40,351 nucleotides of DNA from an uncultured bacterium. Lineage in GTDB: Bacteria; AUK180. The translations under genes and the position numbers were made by a program. The stretch covers positions 1-40,351 of the forward strand of contig CALMGJ010000027.1 of NCBI GenBank assembly GCA_937863565.1. The letters run 5' to 3'. Under the pieces are notes generated by a model, which was given only the letters and a program-made list of their open reading frames with translations, made no database searches and was not told where the DNA came from. This document shows positions 1-18,483 of the stretch, piece by piece (the first letter of the stretch is position 1; each line of letters starts with the position of its first letter).

Positions 1-1209
1 GCAGGCTACCGGGTGTTCCATGTTATGAATATTACCGACATAGACGATAAGATCATAAAAAGGTCCCTCGAATCCGGAACGGATTTCAGGGAGTTCACAA
101 AAAAGTTCGAAGAGAGGTTTCTGAAGGATTTCAAGGCAGTGAAATGCACCATGCCGGATATGCTTCCGCATGCCGTAACCGAGATCCCGGCTATGATCCC
201 GATCATTGAAAAACTGATAAACCGCGGCTATGCATATGAGAAGGACGGCTCGGTATATTTCGACATTTCCAAATTCCGGGGATACGGACGGCTCTCCAAA
301 CTCGACCGGCGCGAGATAAGATCCGGAGCGAGGGTGGATGTGGACAGTTACGAAAAGGACGACCCCACGGATTTTGCCCTCTGGAAAAGGTCCCGCGAAG
401 GGGAGCCTGCCTTCGATTCGCCTTTCGGCGCAGGCCGCCCCGGCTGGCATATAGAATGCACGGCCATGGGATACCGGTACCTCGGAGAGAGCTTCGACAT
501 CCATACGGGCGGCGTGGATCTCATCTTCCCTCACCATGAGAACGAGATCGCGCAAAGCGAAGCCTTCTGCGGGCATAAAACCGTCAACTACTGGGTACAT
601 ACGGAACACCTTTTCGCGGACGGGAAAAAAATGTCCAAATCACTGGGGAATTTTTACACTTTGGGTGACCTGCTTGCAAAGGGATTCTCACCGCAAGCAG
701 TAAGATATTGTTTCATATCCGCGCATTACAGAACGCAGATCAATTTCACCGTTGAAGGCCTCTCGGCCGCGGCGAACACCGTATCGAACGTGAACAATTT
801 CCTAAAGCGTGCAATGAGCGAAAAAGGCGGCGGTACGGATATCGCGTATGAAGTGATTGAAATGAAGAACGCTTTCTTCAACGCCCTTTTTAATGATATC
901 AATATTTCTGCCGCTCTTGCAGCGATGTCCGAGATCATCATTGCGGCAAATAAAACAGGACTTGGCAACCTAAGCAGGAACACTCTTGATGCCGTTATCG
1001 ATGCTTTCAGGGAATTCAACGGCGTCCTGGACGTTTTTGAATTCGAGGAAAAGATCCCCTCCGAGATCCTCGCCCTCGCCGAAAAAAGATGGGAAGCGAA
1101 GATGAAGAAGGATTTTACTGCTGCCGATGCCCTGCGGAAGGAGTTGGCCGGAAAGGGCTACACCGTCGAAGACAAGGCGGACGGATTCTATTTAAGAAGG
1201 TCGTCTTGA
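1..1209 (+). CDS. cysS: Cysteinyl-tRNA synthetase (5'-truncated by window edge)
   Basis: Frame open from base 1; motifs NITDIDDKII, DFALWK, GRPGWHIEC, DIHTGGVDLIFPHHENE, KMSKSLGN; C-terminal anticodon-binding helix (ADALRKEL). Confidence 0.98.
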   Translation, partial: AGYRVFHVMNITDIDDKIIKRSLESGTDFREFTKKFEERFLKDFKAVKCTMPDMLPHAVTEIPAMIPIIEKLINRGYAYEKDGSVYFDISKFRGYGRLSKLDRREIRSGARVDVDSYEKDDPTDFALWKRSREGEPAFDSPFGAGRPGWHIECTAMGYRYLGESFDIHTGGVDLIFPHHENEIAQSEAFCGHKTVNYWVHTEHLFADGKKMSKSLGNFYTLGDLLAKGFSPQAVRYCFISAHYRTQINFTVEGLSAAANTVSNVNNFLKRAMSEKGGGTDIAYEVIEMKNAFFNALFNDINISAALAAMSEIIIAANKTGLGNLSRNTLDAVIDAFREFNGVLDVFEFEEKIPSEILALAEKRWEAKMKKDFTAADALRKELAGKGYTVEDKADGFYLRRSS

Positions 1210-11707: not shown

Positions 11708-11736
11708 TTGAAAATCGCAGTAAAAAACAATATAAT
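11708..11736 (+). promoter_or_regulatory. Sigma70-type promoter
   Basis: TTGAAA-17 nt-TATAAT upstream of gene with GGAGGT SD. Confidence 0.65.
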
Positions 11737-11803: not shown

Positions 11804-13141
11804 ATGAAAAGAATGCTTCTGATTCTTCTTCTTGCGGTGTTCGTTATCGGCCATGCCGGGGACGCCAAAATGAGCTCGCTTCTTTTGCCCTACTGGGCGA
11901 TGGATGACGAGCAGGGAATCATGTATTTTCCCACCTGGCTTGCCGCCTTCCCCGATATGGCAAGGGTGGAGGCTTCACCTTTCGGCATTTATGATCCTTA
12001 CGGAGGGTTCCATTTGAGATACGGGGATTCGATGTATTTCGCGCTCTACGTGAACAGGCCTTATGCGAACGACATAGGAGAAATGTGGAGCGAACCGGGC
12101 GCTGATACGCTCGGCATTTACGCCCCCTATATCACCCCTAATAATTATCTCGATCTCATTTTATGCATGAACATGGGAGATGCGATGAAGCTCGGCTTCA
12201 AGTTCAACTATGCCAATAATTCCTGGGATGACAACTATGTCTACACTACGCAGCCGAACCCTGCGGTCGGCGATGACGACTGGACGGAAAGACAGTATGC
12301 CAGGGAGTTGAATTTCACTGTGGATCTTATGATGCTCGACTTCGCATTTTTAAAATCCTTCAATATCGGCGTGGACTTCGGTCTTCCTTCTATGCTTTAC
12401 GAGGAAGATTATCTTTCCATCACAGGTGTGGCTCCGATCGTTTGGAGCAGAGTGTACAATACTTCGGAAACGGACGGCGCTTCGTACATAGCTGTAAGGC
12501 TTTTCGGCAACACGAAAGGAACGAGGCTTTTTGCCAGCGCGGACTTCAACAATATCAGCCATTTGGAGACCTGGTCTGACGATGCGGGCAATGACGGCGT
12601 CTTTGAAGCGATCTACAATACTTCGACGGCACAGCATATAACGAGGATCAAGGCCGGACTTTCAAGATCGTTCACGAATAAAGCCATCACTTTCGTCTAT
12701 GGCGGATATCTCCACTATGACCACATGTCCTGGGAACAGCAGGATTATGACGGCCTGGCCACTCCTACGGTGATCGACGAGATGTACAATTATTCGGAAA
12801 GCGATTTCTCCATCCCAATATTCATGTCTGCGATCCTCAGGGTCAAGAACTGGTTCGAAGGTTATGCAGGCTTCTATGCTCCGATGTTCTACAGCTGGAG
12901 CTCAAAGGACGAAGATCCCGATCTGGCCGGCGGCGTATATACGGATACGACTACCGATGATTACAAGGAAGGATATTTCCCCTATGTTTATACGATGCTC
13001 GGCGTCGGGTTCAAATTCCCGAACTGGAGGGCAGACCTGACACTCTATCCGACAAGCATTTTCAATCCCTATCTGTTAACGGGAAATGTCGGAACATCGA
13101 TGGTCATGTATTTGACCCTTACGTATTACTGGAACAAATAA
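11804..13141 (+). CDS. Putative outer-membrane beta-barrel protein
   Basis: Signal peptide; amphipathic aromatic-rich strands with acidic loops; C-terminal alternating strand MYLTLTYYW. Confidence 0.7.
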   Translation: MKRMLLILLLAVFVIGHAGDAKMSSLLLPYWAMDDEQGIMYFPTWLAAFPDMARVEASPFGIYDPYGGFHLRYGDSMYFALYVNRPYANDIGEMWSEPGADTLGIYAPYITPNNYLDLILCMNMGDAMKLGFKFNYANNSWDDNYVYTTQPNPAVGDDDWTERQYARELNFTVDLMMLDFAFLKSFNIGVDFGLPSMLYEEDYLSITGVAPIVWSRVYNTSETDGASYIAVRLFGNTKGTRLFASADFNNISHLETWSDDAGNDGVFEAIYNTSTAQHITRIKAGLSRSFTNKAITFVYGGYLHYDHMSWEQQDYDGLATPTVIDEMYNYSESDFSIPIFMSAILRVKNWFEGYAGFYAPMFYSWSSKDEDPDLAGGVYTDTTTDDYKEGYFPYVYTMLGVGFKFPNWRADLTLYPTSIFNPYLLTGNVGTSMVMYLTLTYYWNK

Positions 13142-13174: not shown

Positions 13175-14737
13175 ATGAGAAAAACGGGTGTAATCTTTAC
13201 TTACGGGCCTTCAGTATCAGATTCTCGCGTCTTGAAGAAAATGCTTGCCTCCGCGGACGGAATAAGGCTCAATTTCTCCCATATGAAAAGAGGGGAGATA
13301 AAGGGCCTTACGGCCCGTATCAGAAAGATCGAGAGCGAGCTTGATGCATTCATACCCGTTTTCGGGGATATTTCCGGTACAAAGATCAGACTGAAATACG
13401 GGGGAGAGCCGAAGAAAGGGGATATCCTGAGACTTTCCCCCGAAGATCTCAATATCCCCGAGATAATCAAATTCCTAAAACCCGGCGAAAGAGTACTGAT
13501 AGACGACGGCAAGATCGCAGGGAAGATAAGATCCCTGCGCTCCGGCTCTCTTTCGGTAGCGATCACCTGCGGAGGGATACTTCCTCCCAATAAAGGCATC
13601 AGCTTTCCCGATTCGAAGCTCGAGATCCCTTGCATCAGTAAAAAGGACATCGAAGACATCGAAGAGGCCGCCTTGGCCGGCGTTGATTTTCTTTTTCTTT
13701 CTTTCGTCAACAAAGCGGACGATATTACGGGAATAAAAAAAGCAGTGCATGCTTTAAGATCGGATATACCCGTCATCGCGAAGATCGAAACGAAGAATGC
13801 CGTAAAGAACATAAAAAAAATCATCGAATGCTCGGACGGCATTCTGATCGCGCGCGGCGATCTCGGCAGTGAGATGCGCACGGAAGAGGTCCCCATTATA
13901 CAAAAAACCATCGTGAAGATGGCCAATGAAGCGGGTAAGCTCACTTTCGTTGCGACCGGCATACTCGATTCGATGATAAAAAGCGGAATACCTCTCAGAG
14001 CCGAAGTAGCAGATATTTCCAATATGGTCGAGGAAGAGGTGGATGCCGTTATGGTCACATCCGAGACCTCCATCGGCGAAGCGCCCCTTAAAGTGCTTGA
14101 AGTCCTTAACAGGGTCCTGAAAAAAAGCGAGGCGTATTACGATCCGAGGACGGATAAATCCTCTTTCGTGATAAAAAGCCTCCGTTTCTCGAGAACGAAG
14201 GCCATTGCAAGATCGATATACACTAATTCCGAGGAGAACGATGCCAGGGCGATCATCAATGTGACGAATTCCGGGGAAACATCCTTGTTCTGTTCAAAAT
14301 ACAGGCCCACATCTCCGATCTTCGCCGTATCGGATTCCGCTGTTACTTTAAGACGGTGCAGGATAATGTGGAATGTCCGGCCGCTTTTCATCAAAAATGC
14401 TCAAAAGGCCGGCACGGACCGCATCATAGAAGAAGCCGGGAAAAGGATCCGCCTCAAAGCCGGTGATATCGTTCTTATTTCCAAAGGTTTTCCTGAGGGA
14501 GCAGCAGGCAATACGAACAGTTTTTCGGTGTTTACAGTGAAAAGAAAAGGGCCCGGGAACAGTAAAAACCCCGGGATCGACAGCGGCCTCTGCGTCCTCT
14601 GCGGAAAATGCGTCAATATATGTCCGTTCGGGATCTTCTATTTCGATAAAGGCATTATTAGAACAAGGGATCACGAAAAATGTATTAAAGACGGCTTATG
14701 CACAGCAGGATGCCCGGTCAAGGCGGTGAAAATATGA
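13175..14737 (+). CDS. pyk: Pyruvate kinase with C-terminal ferredoxin-like Fe-S domain
   Basis: RLNFSH, D..GTKIR, LIDDG, IAKIE, DGILIARGDLG.E, RAEV.D..N, PK_C domain; tail CVLCGKCVNICP...CIKDGLCTAGCP. Confidence 0.93.
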   Translation: MRKTGVIFTYGPSVSDSRVLKKMLASADGIRLNFSHMKRGEIKGLTARIRKIESELDAFIPVFGDISGTKIRLKYGGEPKKGDILRLSPEDLNIPEIIKFLKPGERVLIDDGKIAGKIRSLRSGSLSVAITCGGILPPNKGISFPDSKLEIPCISKKDIEDIEEAALAGVDFLFLSFVNKADDITGIKKAVHALRSDIPVIAKIETKNAVKNIKKIIECSDGILIARGDLGSEMRTEEVPIIQKTIVKMANEAGKLTFVATGILDSMIKSGIPLRAEVADISNMVEEEVDAVMVTSETSIGEAPLKVLEVLNRVLKKSEAYYDPRTDKSSFVIKSLRFSRTKAIARSIYTNSEENDARAIINVTNSGETSLFCSKYRPTSPIFAVSDSAVTLRRCRIMWNVRPLFIKNAQKAGTDRIIEEAGKRIRLKAGDIVLISKGFPEGAAGNTNSFSVFTVKRKGPGNSKNPGIDSGLCVLCGKCVNICPFGIFYFDKGIIRTRDHEKCIKDGLCTAGCPVKAVKI

Positions 14738-15888
14738 GAAGAAGAGTGGCATTGATAATCGCGGGTGGAGAGGGAGAGAGGTTCTGGCCTTATTCCACGC
14801 CGGACCTTCCCAAGCAGTTTTTAAGCGTTTTCACGGAGAAATCCCTTATCCGGCTCACTTTTGAAAGGATCGCCAAGATGATACCTCCCGAGGATATCTA
14901 TGTCGTGACCGGTAAAAGGTACGGAGCCCTCACTAAGGAATTCCTTCCCGAGCTTGGGGAGCAGAACATCATCCTGGAACCTGCGAAAAGGAACACATTC
15001 CCTGCTATCGCCTATTCCGTCTTCCTATTGAGAAGGCTGCTCGGGGAAATTACGATAGGCGTTTTTGCCGCCGATCATGTAATAAAGGAAGAGGATGTCT
15101 TCCTTAAACGCTGCCGTGAAGCGTATATCGCGGCCGGAGATAAGAAGAAGATCGTCACCTTCGGCATCATTCCGACCCGGCCGGAAACGAACTACGGATA
15201 CATCCGGAGCCTCCGGTCCGAATTGATCGGAGATATAAGGATCTTCAGCGATGTCATGTTCATAGAGAAACCTCCGATCGAAAAGGCCAGGGAATATTTC
15301 AGTTCGGGGAATTTCTTCTGGAACTCCGGTATGTTCGTTTTCGATTCGGATGTGCTGATATCCGAGATAGAGACCCTCAGACCGGCCGATCATACCCTTT
15401 TGAAAAAGCACGTCCTGGAGAACGATGATCCCGAAGCGCTTTTCGGCAAGATAACATCTGATTCGATCGATTATGCCGTAATGGAAAAAAGCAGGAATAT
15501 ACTCATGATAAAAGGGGATTTTTCATGGGACGATATCGGGAACTGGGACGCGCTTTTACGGATGAAGGAAAAGAGCGATCCGAATTATGTGCTCGGAGAA
15601 CACTCCGTTGAGAACTGTACGGGGTGCGTGGTCATCTCGGAAGGGACCAGATTCGAGATCAGAAACGGGAAAGACCTCGTCTGCGTGGAGAACGGAGGAA
15701 AACTTCTCGTATCTGCTCTTGCCGGTCTCGAGCATCTAAAAACGGCGATCAGAAAGGGCGGGAATACGACGATCGAGTGCGTAAATGTGAAAATGACCGG
15801 CAATCCCGGTTCTTATATCATGCTCGGGCTTAAAAACCTGACCCTCGAAACGGATGGAAAGATAATACTGATAAATGTGAACGATTGA
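14734..15888 (+). CDS. manC: Mannose-1-phosphate guanylyltransferase (monofunctional, no isomerase cupin)
   Basis: IIAGGEGERFWPYS..DLPKQFL, EPAKRNT, ADH.I, GI.PTRPETNYGYI, F.EKP, WNSGMF, SIDYAVMEK, WDDIG.W; ATGA overlap with pyk. Confidence 0.93.
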   Translation: MRRRVALIIAGGEGERFWPYSTPDLPKQFLSVFTEKSLIRLTFERIAKMIPPEDIYVVTGKRYGALTKEFLPELGEQNIILEPAKRNTFPAIAYSVFLLRRLLGEITIGVFAADHVIKEEDVFLKRCREAYIAAGDKKKIVTFGIIPTRPETNYGYIRSLRSELIGDIRIFSDVMFIEKPPIEKAREYFSSGNFFWNSGMFVFDSDVLISEIETLRPADHTLLKKHVLENDDPEALFGKITSDSIDYAVMEKSRNILMIKGDFSWDDIGNWDALLRMKEKSDPNYVLGEHSVENCTGCVVISEGTRFEIRNGKDLVCVENGGKLLVSALAGLEHLKTAIRKGGNTTIECVNVKMTGNPGSYIMLGLKNLTLETDGKIILINVND

Positions 15889-16017: not shown

Positions 16018-18483
16018 TTATCGTATCACGGCGATCTTGCCGGTAAAAGTGACGCCGCCATATTTTTCGACCGTGTAGAAATAGATCCCGCTTTTTACCG
16101 TTCTCCCGTCTTCGTTCTTGAGGTCCCAGATATGCCCGTTCTTGGGGAGAGTCCTGACAAGTACTCCTGCTGCATCGTAGATCCTTATGATGCCCTGCCC
16201 GTCGAGTTCGATGAACCTTACTTCCCCGCCTTTCACAACAGGATTGGGATAGGCAAGGGCATCGTCCGGATCGAAATGATATTCATCAGTAAGCCCGGCG
16301 AACCAGGCGATGGCACGCTCCAGGAATTCAGCGAGAGGATCGGTTATTCGTTCTATTGAGAAAGGGCAGAAGATGGATTTGAAACCGAGGTCTTCTGAAT
16401 AACGGGGATTGCGTATCCCGATCTTCGAGCCGGAGATATTTTGGAAAATATGCACTGCATTATCCACGGGATTCGTACGGTAGATGGAGAGTTCATACGC
16501 CGGATCGGAGAGCGTAACTGCAAGGCCTTCCGTCACAGGGTCCTTAAATATTCCGAAGAGGTTCTCTTCGTTCGCGAATTCAAGTTTGGCGAAACCGGCA
16601 ATGCCGAGATAATCGGAAGAGAATTCCCGTATTTCGGGACTGTCGACGGCATCGAAATTCTTCAGAAGATAACGGCTCGAGATCAGGATATTGCCGCCGG
16701 CATCGAGGAAATCTTCTATCAAAGATATCTCGCCTCTTTCGAACAGTTTCTCGGAACCCTTGATCCCCGTATTCCAGACAACATGCCGGAATCCGTCCAG
16801 GAGCGTTCCGGGGAAAGTATCTCCGGAAGATCTTATGTCGTAGACGGTATGGTTGATGTATCTTTCCGAAAGCGCTTCCGAGATGATCTGCTCGAACGTG
16901 TCCCCGTCATCGTCGTCCACGAGAAGGACGATAGGTTCGCCGATATTGAGATAAGCGTAAAGGGTCTCGGAAAAATCGAAATATCCCGTGGAAAGATCGA
17001 TCCTGAGGCGTTCCGTACCGAAGCCTGTATAAGCGGCATTCACCGTACCGGCGACTGTCAGCGTGAAAGTATCTTTGTCCCTGACATCGCTTCTGGTCAA
17101 TATCTCCGCGGATATATCGGAGAAATCGTACACCTCGGATACGGCAGCCGTGACAGTGTCGATCTTGAAATTGGAATCATTGCGCAAGGTCATCGTGCAT
17201 AAGAAACTCTCTCCCTGTTCCAGAATGCCGTCTGTATCGCCGTCGTCAAGATCCGTTGAAATGAGAGTAAAGCCCTGCCACGGTTCGGTATGCTTTATGT
17301 ATTCGTTCCAGAAAGTATCCGAGGCAAAAAGGTTCTCTTCGTAATATTCATTGTAATAAGCGGCCTCGGGAAAATACGCAGCGATGCCGAAAGATCTGCT
17401 GTCATAAGAGAAGTTGCTTATCACTGCGCCTTCGACGGAACCGATAAGGGCCTGGATAGAATAGAAAAGGTCATCAGGGATGCTGTAAGCCTTTATAAGC
17501 GTAAGATAATCAATAAGATCGATATTGAGAGCATTGGCCGATACATAATATTTAAGAGCCCCGTCGTATGCATCGTTCAGTTTCTGGCTGTAGCCGTTGT
17601 GATAGTAATGTCCGGCCATGACGGCGAACCTGTTCATCGCGCTTTTTACTTCCCCGAAAGCGGTGCTGTCAACTGCGGACATGGTTCTTCCGGTGATGAT
17701 CGGATTTGAGGTATTATCCCCGTTGTCGCCCTGTGAATATGCCTCGATGATCTTCTGTGCTACCTCTTCAGCATCGACATTCCCGGCATTTGCCCGTATA
17801 TAATCGAGGAAATACCAGTATGACCACCCGTCGCCCCAGACCGTATCCTCCGAACCTATCACATAATCGGCGAACGGAGTTATATAGTTCAGATTCTCGG
17901 CCATCTGATTGAAGCAAACATCGAAGCCGATGATGTCTAACTTTCTGCCCAGATAAGAGTACATTCCGTTCAATGCCGCAGTGACATCGCCTTCCGTATA
18001 GTATAGGAAATCCATCGAAGTATCGTCCTGGAGAACAGCTTTGCTGTCATCCCCTCCGTTCCTCGAGACCGCGGTCTTGAACCATCCCGTTCCGTGATCC
18101 CAGATCACGAAAAGATATCTGTCGGCGGGGTAATTATCCACTCCCCATTCAAAAAAATCTATAAGGCTCTGCGGATCGGCCATATTGACCTCGCCGAGGC
18201 CCATTTCTGCATTCGATGTTTCCGGCGTCATATCTTTTTCTACTTTGAAGCGCCAGCAATCGGTCCAATCCCCGTACGCTGTTGAATAGGAAGGCCTTCT
18301 GTCGAACTGAACGAGGATATTAAGAAATGTATCCGATCCCGTTTTTGCCATCTCCATGAAATCATCCACGGCATATGCTTCGAGATTGTTATCCCCGTCG
18401 AGGAAGACCATTACGGTCCATGATGCGGCCGATGCAATTGCACAAATAGAAAGTAAGGATAGAAGAAAGACCGCTTTTTTCAT
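16018..18483 (-). CDS. Secreted clostripain-family (peptidase C11) protease with T9SS/FlgD-like C-terminal domain
   Basis: Signal peptide; WTVMVFLDGDNNLE, catalytic WDHGTGW and FDVC; VLLVDDD accessory domain; tail AYPNP...IYDAAG.LVR..WD.KN..G..V.SGIYFY..GKIAVIR. Confidence 0.9.
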   Translation of the reverse strand: MKKAVFLLSLLSICAIASAASWTVMVFLDGDNNLEAYAVDDFMEMAKTGSDTFLNILVQFDRRPSYSTAYGDWTDCWRFKVEKDMTPETSNAEMGLGEVNMADPQSLIDFFEWGVDNYPADRYLFVIWDHGTGWFKTAVSRNGGDDSKAVLQDDTSMDFLYYTEGDVTAALNGMYSYLGRKLDIIGFDVCFNQMAENLNYITPFADYVIGSEDTVWGDGWSYWYFLDYIRANAGNVDAEEVAQKIIEAYSQGDNGDNTSNPIITGRTMSAVDSTAFGEVKSAMNRFAVMAGHYYHNGYSQKLNDAYDGALKYYVSANALNIDLIDYLTLIKAYSIPDDLFYSIQALIGSVEGAVISNFSYDSRSFGIAAYFPEAAYYNEYYEENLFASDTFWNEYIKHTEPWQGFTLISTDLDDGDTDGILEQGESFLCTMTLRNDSNFKIDTVTAAVSEVYDFSDISAEILTRSDVRDKDTFTLTVAGTVNAAYTGFGTERLRIDLSTGYFDFSETLYAYLNIGEPIVLLVDDDDGDTFEQIISEALSERYINHTVYDIRSSGDTFPGTLLDGFRHVVWNTGIKGSEKLFERGEISLIEDFLDAGGNILISSRYLLKNFDAVDSPEIREFSSDYLGIAGFAKLEFANEENLFGIFKDPVTEGLAVTLSDPAYELSIYRTNPVDNAVHIFQNISGSKIGIRNPRYSEDLGFKSIFCPFSIERITDPLAEFLERAIAWFAGLTDEYHFDPDDALAYPNPVVKGGEVRFIELDGQGIIRIYDAAGVLVRTLPKNGHIWDLKNEDGRTVKSGIYFYTVEKYGGVTFTGKIAVIR

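Follow-up and report, generated by a model that had tools for sequence, protein, structure and literature searches.

We describe a pyruvate kinase (PK) that continues, within one open reading frame (ORF), into an iron-sulfur (Fe-S) domain of the ferredoxin type. The gene (pyk) lies at positions 13175–14737 on the forward strand of a 40,351-nucleotide stretch of DNA from an uncultured bacterium of the AUK180 lineage (positions 1–40,351 of contig CALMGJ010000027.1, assembly GCA_937863565.1), which we refer to as the window. It is virtually certain that the fusion is real, and it is conserved across several phylum-level lineages. A search of the literature on PK-ferredoxin fusions (titles and abstract openings, without supplements) returned no description of such a protein, and we regard the fused PKs as an undescribed PK subfamily that carries a second, unrelated type of extra C-terminal domain, namely an Fe-S module. 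An invariant acidic residue in the second cluster motif of the tail, together with a histidine in the PK body that accompanies the tail, suggests a regulatory function for this module.

The pyruvate kinase frame continues into a ferredoxin-type domain

The frame opens with ATG and encodes 520 residues plus a stop without interruption. The barrel (A domain) with its inserted B lid (residues 1–306, 13175–14092) scored 224 bits against the Pfam PK family (PF00224; cut-off 30), and the allosteric C domain (residues 343–452, 14201–14530) scored 79.3 bits against PK_C (PF02887; cut-off 28), while the whole protein passed the NCBIfam equivalog model for pyruvate kinase, TIGR01064, at 359.3 bits against a cut-off of 306.4. 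The columns RLNxSH, D65, K203 and E205 of the AKIE motif, D229, T261 and E297/T298, the active-site positions of PK, are invariant in an alignment of 84 sequences as well as in 15 fused PKs, and Lys203 (codon at 13781–13783) is a lysine in 210/210 aligned PKs. Judged by these residues, the enzyme has kept an intact catalytic core. No second PK match exists in the window genome (G000; 2.27 Mb in 38 contigs, 95.51% complete) beside the fused gene, and by its sequence it is the housekeeping pyruvate kinase of the organism, with enzymatic activity predicted.

The C domain ends in GFPEGAAGNTNSFSVFTV, an effector-loop-like GFPEGAAGNTN segment that aligns with the conserved PK pattern G-x-P-x-G-x-x-G-T-T-N. 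From there, as read directly from the sequence, the frame runs through a linker of 12 residues (KRKGPGNSKNPG, residues 455–466, 14537–14572) into a dicluster ferredoxin-type domain (residues 467–520, 14573–14734), which exceeded the Pfam cut-offs for Fer4 (39.9 bits against 21.1, in two stretches), Fer4_6 (37.5 against 25), Fer4_7 (31.4 against 27, residues 473–517) and Fer4_10 (27.9 against 25.5). The stop codon of pyk, TGA at 14735–14737, overlaps the ATG of the next gene (14734–14736) as ATGA (14734–14737). An earlier sequence-only reading of the window had proposed this architecture, with PK A, B and C domains leading through a linker into a two-motif ferredoxin domain, and had noted a stop codon overlapping the start of a downstream manC; profile scores and the single frame bear out the former, and the overlap is confirmed, the downstream product being manC-like by profile. 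On the opposite strand, within pyk, lies a further ORF (13201–14073, reverse strand, 290 aa) whose weak matches at the loci of relatives are also antisense to their pyk; we interpret it as a shadow cast by the conserved coding sequence of PK and not as a gene.

The fusion recurs in independent assemblies and in distant lineages

To place the fusion among its relatives, we searched 40 related genomes with the whole protein, six of them from the same family, two from another family in the class and 32 from outside the class. Full-length fused matches (residues 1–519/520) with no internal stop were present in 5/6 same-family genomes and in 2/2 genomes of the other family, that is in 7/8 genomes of the class; none of the 32 genomes outside the class carried the fusion, and no PK match there ran beyond residue 459. 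The sixth same-family genome (G006, 69% complete) gave no PK match. The same continuous architecture recurs in independent assemblies at 30–48% identity, which is far beyond chance. A frameshift, mis-assembly or read-through that joined a separate ferredoxin gene to pyk would have been betrayed, according to the sequence-only reading, by a stop or frameshift in the linker or by relatives that encode the ferredoxin separately; no relative shows such a break, and in none of those examined is there a separate gene for the tail domain at that place. Given the recurrence of the unbroken frame at this level of divergence, with no internal stops and no split relative, a frameshift or mis-assembly is effectively excluded, and we assign the artefact a negligible probability.

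One ferredoxin piece, in G006, was considered as a split form of the tail domain and rejected, being an unrelated ferredoxin of 117 aa with eight cysteines. At this locus (L025, G006:C34, 664–1481, reverse strand), the eight-Cys dicluster ferredoxin adjoins a 140-aa Gly-rich protein that itself ends in a dicluster ferredoxin domain.

The wider spread of the architecture, for which the sequence-only reading had suggested a domain-architecture search, was followed with a profile of the PK_C tail, linker and ferredoxin domain built from eight sequences, with which 1.84 billion representative proteins were searched exhaustively. Among the best 150 matches, at least 26 clusters (50% identity) matched in one stretch across the PK_C tail and the ferredoxin domain, and both cluster motifs were present in 29 of the 30 candidates inspected; the thirtieth, a 1063-aa protein with four complete Cys motifs and no PK-type C-terminal tail, was set aside as not being of this architecture. 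The fused proteins come from sources labelled 'bacterium', 'Candidatus Calescamantes bacterium', 'Candidatus Dependentiae bacterium', 'Planctomycetota bacterium' and, in a UniRef entry, 'Candidatus Wallbacteria bacterium HGW-Wallbacteria-1', as well as from metagenome-assembled genomes (MAGs) labelled 'Bacteriovoracaceae', 'Oligoflexia' and 'Deltaproteobacteria'. At the Bacteriovoracaceae/Oligoflexia loci, the PK is fused in 5/6 cases. All fused sources are MAGs and the proteins are labelled just 'pyruvate kinase' or '4Fe-4S protein', which may explain why the fusion went unnoticed. A word-indexed search with residues 415–520 returned the query alone, reflecting the sensitivity limit of that search; when a profile of 15 fused PKs was run against the word-indexed database, six fused proteins were among the 120 matches listed, and the remaining fused clusters did not appear among its candidates.

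We then inferred a tree from PK-only columns (residues 1–455) of 18 fused and 66 unfused PKs, the unfused sample consisting of the nearest matches to the window and to the fused profile and not to each fused lineage. The fused PKs of the window's class form a clade of eight with 100% support, and the remaining ones occupy long branches close to the base of the tree, where long-branch attraction is possible. In the free tree, the fused label is scattered and requires six changes, of which well-supported branches force just one. A tree holding all 18 fused PKs together had a log-likelihood 11.75 above that of the free tree, with a p-value of 0.697 in the approximately unbiased (AU) test; a single origin of the fused PKs, which gave the better of the two trees, is thus not rejected by the AU test; the subfamily is probably monophyletic, which the free tree by itself does not demonstrate.

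The second cluster motif carries an invariant carboxylate

The tail domain contains two ferredoxin motifs. Motif 1, CVLCGKCVNICP (14591–14626), follows the pattern CxxCxxCxxxCP with Cys473, Cys476, Cys479 and Cys483, and motif 2, CIKDGLCTAGCP (14681–14716), reads CxxDxxCxxxCP with Cys503, Asp506, Cys509 and Cys513. Across 42 fused sequences, in which the two motifs are spaced 30–35 residues apart, all seven cysteines and the proline after the last Cys are invariant (42/42). Position 506, the slot of the second Cys in motif 2 (codon GAC, 14690–14692, in the window), is Asp in 39/42 and Glu in 3/42 sequences, and never Cys or any other residue. Replacement of this cysteine by an acidic residue, noticed as Asp in the window by the sequence-only reading, is thereby a conserved property of the whole set. 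With a non-Cys residue at 506 in 42/42 fused sequences, the domain lacks the eight cysteines of a clostridial-type 2[4Fe-4S] ferredoxin, and it has instead the arrangement of the Asp-type ferredoxins, with a carboxylate for Cys II of motif 2 and the remote Cys of the CP pair retained. Its scores against the PorD_KorD (23.2, cut-off 60.05) and HgcB (36.7, cut-off 99) family models place it outside both families.

Of the two clusters in a dicluster ferredoxin, one is bound by the final Cys of motif 1 together with the first three motif 2 ligands; a carboxylate as the second motif 2 ligand marks clusters that convert between 3Fe and 4Fe forms, such as those of Desulfovibrio africanus ferredoxin III and Pyrococcus furiosus ferredoxin. 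The fused PKs share with these two proteins the CxxDxxC...CP pattern; unlike them, free electron carriers of ~60 residues, the domain described here is fused to a non-redox enzyme. Among sensor proteins, B. subtilis Fnr has an Asp-ligated [4Fe-4S] cluster. An excerpted account of NsrR likewise describes a [4Fe-4S] sensor with Asp8 as a ligand, in which three Cys and one carboxylate hold the cluster and the state of the cluster controls the function of the protein. NsrR and Fnr are transcription factors with unrelated folds, and the likeness is one of ligand set, with no sequence similarity claimed. For D. africanus ferredoxin III, a stable [4Fe-4S] cluster is described beside a second, reactive one ([3Fe-4S]/labile [4Fe-4S]) in which one coordination site is potentially vacant (PMC13111528, excerpt).

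The best sequence matches of the tail among solved structures were units of polyferredoxins, namely MvhB (9SW6_G), a ferredoxin (9SFI_O) and FwdF (5T5I_F), with whole-chain E-values of 3e-16 to 5e-13 and modest scores for single units (~15–20 bits each). One repeat unit of 9SFI_O shows CxxDxxCxxxCP in the alignment; MvhB, 9SFI_O and FwdF differ from the PK tail in being multi-repeat electron wires inside redox complexes. From its motifs and profile matches, we predict that the tail domain very probably binds Fe-S clusters.

A histidine in the catalytic body accompanies the tail

As the sequence-only reading had stated, the known extra domain of PKs is the phosphoenolpyruvate (PEP)-utiliser domain (PEPut, PF00391); we recovered many PF00391-bearing matches, and excerpts of PMC11834443 describe the additional domain at the C-terminus (ECTD) as autoinhibitory in several Bacillota, including B. 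subtilis. In the window's PK, PF00391 had no match at E ≤ 0.01. Like the PEPut PKs of Bacillota and Geobacillus (2E28, 3T05), the fused PKs have their extra domain attached immediately behind the final strand of the C domain; unlike those, their tail is predicted to have a ferredoxin-type Fe-S fold, their hosts are uncultured lineages of other phyla, and they do not group with PEPut-type PKs in the tree. The effector loop of M2PYK (Gly514–Phe521) lies just ahead of its C-terminus, and the Geobacillus C' domain is drawn in place of that loop, possibly bridging the C-C interface and potentially stabilising the tetramer (PMC4448766, excerpt). We infer that the ferredoxin-type domain, attached 12 residues beyond the effector-loop-like segment, lies near both the effector pocket and the small interface.

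A column-by-column comparison of 12 representative fused with 66 unfused PKs yielded a sole position outside the ferredoxin domain at which all fused proteins share a residue that few unfused ones have, His192 (codon CAT, 13748–13750). In the tree set, this column holds His in 18/18 fused against 2/66 unfused PKs, and His is found in all 29 fused rows that cover the position. An alignment of 210 PKs separates the classes further, with His in 15/15 ferredoxin-type PKs and Glu in 30/30 PEPut-type PKs (≥545 aa with a TSH motif) as well as in 12/12 other long PKs, so that Glu occupies the column in 42/42 long PKs without a ferredoxin domain; the 153 plain PKs show 16 different residues (among them K 32, E 26, A 18 and H 5). 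The column is therefore fixed in both types of tailed PK, with a different residue in each.

Alignments map His192 to Glu206 of P0304 and, through that residue, to Glu209 of the Geobacillus stearothermophilus PK (2E28). In excerpts of PMC9009071, which cites the Geobacillus structure of Suzuki 2008, the PEPut domain contacts the catalytic domain through an E209-L536 hydrogen bond between neighbouring subunits, and PEPut lowers PykA activity up to 16-fold in dependence on this contact. The PK-body residue that is tied to the ferredoxin domain thus sits where the PEPut tail docks.

The Bacteriovoracaceae/Oligoflexia loci add four fused PKs not already counted, which also have His at this position. 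At the one unfused locus of this group (L024, 7971–9464), a PK of 497 aa ends right after PK_C; it is 54% identical to the fused protein P0178 and carries Asn together with a seven-residue insertion at the His192 position, making it a natural domain-minus comparison partner.

Structure prediction of the fused protein

AlphaFold2 (AF2) predictions from a mixed alignment had a mean predicted local distance difference test (pLDDT) score of 88.5, with the ferredoxin domain at 50–64 and linker residues 460–465 below 50. With a fused-only alignment, the ferredoxin domain rose to a pLDDT of 81–89, linker residues 460–463 again being below 50, and within the whole protein this model places helices at residues 478–482 and 508–512 and strands at 488–491 and 494–497 of the domain.

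The predicted PK body closely resembles solved PKs, with a Foldseek template modelling (TM) score of ~0.8 and, in a structure comparison (VIA), Z ~50 and a root-mean-square deviation of 2.1–2.4 over ~450 residues, in line with the three-domain A/B/C fold. 3T05 and 2E28, the two solved PKs that possess such an additional C-terminal domain as PEPut, ranked first and fourth, 2E28 being tied with 8EDS at Z 50.6. Theirs alone are the alignments that reach into the ferredoxin region (model range 1..493), a weak hint of a shared placement of the tail. Complex prediction of the PK body (1–456) with the ferredoxin domain (464–520) and two 4Fe-4S clusters scored 0.06 and 0.03 against a mark of 0.32, which speaks neither for nor against docking.

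A putative Fe-S regulatory tail and its alternatives

Pyruvate kinase is among the most studied allosteric enzymes. Besides the PEPut tail in Bacillota, the PK controls that we know of, or found, comprise metabolites, phosphorylation and cysteine oxidation. We propose that in the fused PKs the ferredoxin-type domain takes the slot for an extra C-terminal domain that Bacillota PKs fill with PEPut. The tail would bind two clusters, an all-Cys [4Fe-4S] cluster and a labile Cys3-Asp cluster that converts between [4Fe-4S] and [3Fe-4S] forms, and it would dock on the A domain of the adjacent subunit through His192, in the vicinity of the effector loop and C-C interface. As the autoinhibitory domain of Bacillus PK suggests by analogy, docking would bias the T/R equilibrium of the tetramer; docking itself would depend on whether the Asp-ligated cluster is oxidised, reduced, in the 3Fe form or lost, such that PK flux would follow redox, O2 or Fe-S status.

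We consider the parts of this proposal to be of unequal strength. A regulatory tail domain that docks at the His192 site is, by analogy with PEPut, slightly favoured over its alternatives, and the whole proposal of an Fe-S regulatory tail of PK analogous to the Bacillus domain stands evenly in the balance. The nature of the signal is less secure, and we suggest with some reserve that it is redox state, O2 or the integrity of the cluster. The sequence-only reading had offered a coupling of PK activity to redox, O2 or iron status; the coupling gains indirect support from the acidic residue at 506 in all fused sequences and from the fused-specific His at the tail-contact position, and its signal is conjectural. 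More tentative still is the notion that gating by an iron-sulfur cluster has, in PK-ferredoxin, its first example among glycolytic kinases, with a switch between 4Fe, 3Fe and apo forms that would make or break the His192 contact in trans and flip the enzyme between T and R. Such a switch would respond to O2, to oxidants or to how far the ferredoxin pool is reduced, and PEP consumption would stop under oxidative stress or during gluconeogenic operation of pyruvate synthase and pyruvate, phosphate dikinase (PPDK). The window genome has one PPDK-type gene (a 918-aa frame) and five POR_N loci above cut-off, and the presence of pyruvate-forming and PEP-regenerating routes gives this organism a reason to control PK.

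Several points weigh against a redox-sensitive regulatory tail. Ferredoxins with 7Fe can be air-stable, so a non-Cys position need not mean lability. His also occurs at the 192 column in 5/153 plain PKs, and few independent events, possibly one origin and one loss, underlie the association of His192 with the ferredoxin domain. The linker varies in length and sequence among relatives, and its poor conservation and low pLDDT mean that the domain could be freely tethered. The hosts are also heterogeneous: heme-copper oxidases are encoded in 4/4 Bacteriovoracaceae/Oligoflexia genomes with the fusion (2–4 matches each), and the window genome, at its 95.51% completeness, has no heme-copper oxidase match, so that one common redox signal is not obvious. 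Finally, the extra C-terminal domain is reported to activate PK in Staphylococcus aureus and to have little effect in Geobacillus (excerpts of PMC11834443), exceptions by which a tail effect could run in either direction.

The alternatives for the function of the tail rank, by our confidence, from a structural bridge through an electron-transfer or docking module to a degradation tag. The first, which we consider unlikely, is a purely structural tail, in which the Fe-S domain bridges subunits and stabilises the tetramer while sensing nothing. The potentially stabilising role of the Geobacillus C' domain across the C-C interface, the shared attachment point of that domain and the tail, and the conserved contact-position residue all fit such a bridge, as do some source labels that suggest thermal or subsurface habitats. 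A scaffold, however, has no need of the strict Asp/Glu at position 506, and an all-Cys cluster would be more robust; moreover, Bacillus PK without its extra domain is still tetrameric (PMC11834443, excerpt).

An electron-transfer or docking module, by which the tail would take electrons from, or recruit, pyruvate:ferredoxin oxidoreductase (PFOR) and channel the pyruvate made by PK, is improbable. The five POR_N loci and the missing heme-copper oxidase match in the window genome would suit it, and so would the likeness between the tail and the polyferredoxin units that belong to electron-transfer complexes (MvhB and FwdF, for example). Against this, POR_N has no match in 3/4 fused Bacteriovoracaceae/Oligoflexia genomes (whose completeness is not reported), which all encode heme-copper oxidases, and with POR_N rare and oxidases present, a PFOR-tied function is argued against and a function intrinsic to PK is favoured. 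In addition, no oxidoreductase gene is a conserved neighbour at the loci of relatives examined, the chemistry of PK requires no electrons, the PorD_KorD score of the tail falls far short of its cut-off, and a carrier fixed to a tetramer of ~230 kDa (computed for 4 × 520 residues) would be a poor shuttle. Docking to PFOR, which the sequence-only reading had put forward as an option, is weakened by the same distribution of POR_N and oxidases.

Least probable of these is an O2-triggered inactivation or degradation tag, modelled on the B. subtilis glutamine phosphoribosyl pyrophosphate amidotransferase, in which cluster loss would mark the enzyme for unfolding or proteolysis with no reversible tuning: the labile Asp-type site and the exposed C-terminal position behind a flexible linker agree with it, but it leaves the conserved His192 contact position unexplained and would be costly for a genome's only PK.

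If the regulatory proposal holds, redox, O2 or Fe-S status joins the inputs to the last step of glycolysis as one of a new kind, and the extra C-terminal slot of PK turns out to be a docking site of general use, occupied in evolution by unrelated domains on two occasions. Given hosts with and without heme-copper oxidase matches, the module is not tied to one lifestyle. The invariant acidic position (Asp506) and the co-varying His192 provide two precise targets for point mutants.

Gene neighbourhood and host genomes

The gene downstream of pyk (14734–15888, forward strand) encodes a manC-like protein, that is a mannose-1-phosphate guanylyltransferase-like nucleoside triphosphate transferase (PF00483, 119 bits). 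Against TIGR01479 it scored 242.8 bits, below the cut-off of 372.95, aligning to positions 3–342 of this 467-position bifunctional model. A manC-like gene directly follows pyk and overlaps its stop in 5/5 same-family loci; it was not found at L009, and L008 is too short to tell. Upstream, a gene of 445 aa with a hydrophobic N-terminus (11804–13141, forward strand) matches no Pfam or NCBIfam family and ends 33 nt before the PK start; it was not found beside pyk at the loci of relatives. The best promoter-like site of the scanned region (11708–11736, 11/12 matches, a consensus match only) lies upstream of this gene, and the 445-aa gene, pyk and the manC-like gene may form one transcription unit.

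Gene neighbours of the fused PKs differ between lineages, and none is shared. At the Bacteriovoracaceae/Oligoflexia loci (L019–L024), a protein of ~650 aa with a Lys/Glu/Gln-rich, coiled-coil-like C-terminus is encoded upstream of PK (for example L019, 6071–8026), and its gene ends ~25 nt inside the PK start in 6/6 loci, including the locus without the ferredoxin domain. The fused gene is the sole PK in 3/4 Bacteriovoracaceae/Oligoflexia genomes; the other has a second, unfused PK (a 498-aa frame; G041:C26:11879–12778) beside the fused one.

In the window genome, the sole PPDK-type gene lies ~4 kb from a POR_N match (C11:156537–157076), the two spanning G000:C11:151571–157076, and they may represent a pyruvate-node gene cluster. 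Within the window, a gene on the reverse strand (16018–18483) encodes a protein of 821 aa. Its N-terminal region is clostripain-like (TIGR02806, at 64.7 bits far below the cut-off), and at the C-terminus a type IX secretion system (T9SS) type A sorting domain passed its cut-off of 23 with 28 bits (TIGR04183); the protein is probably a peptidase secreted by a T9SS-using organism.

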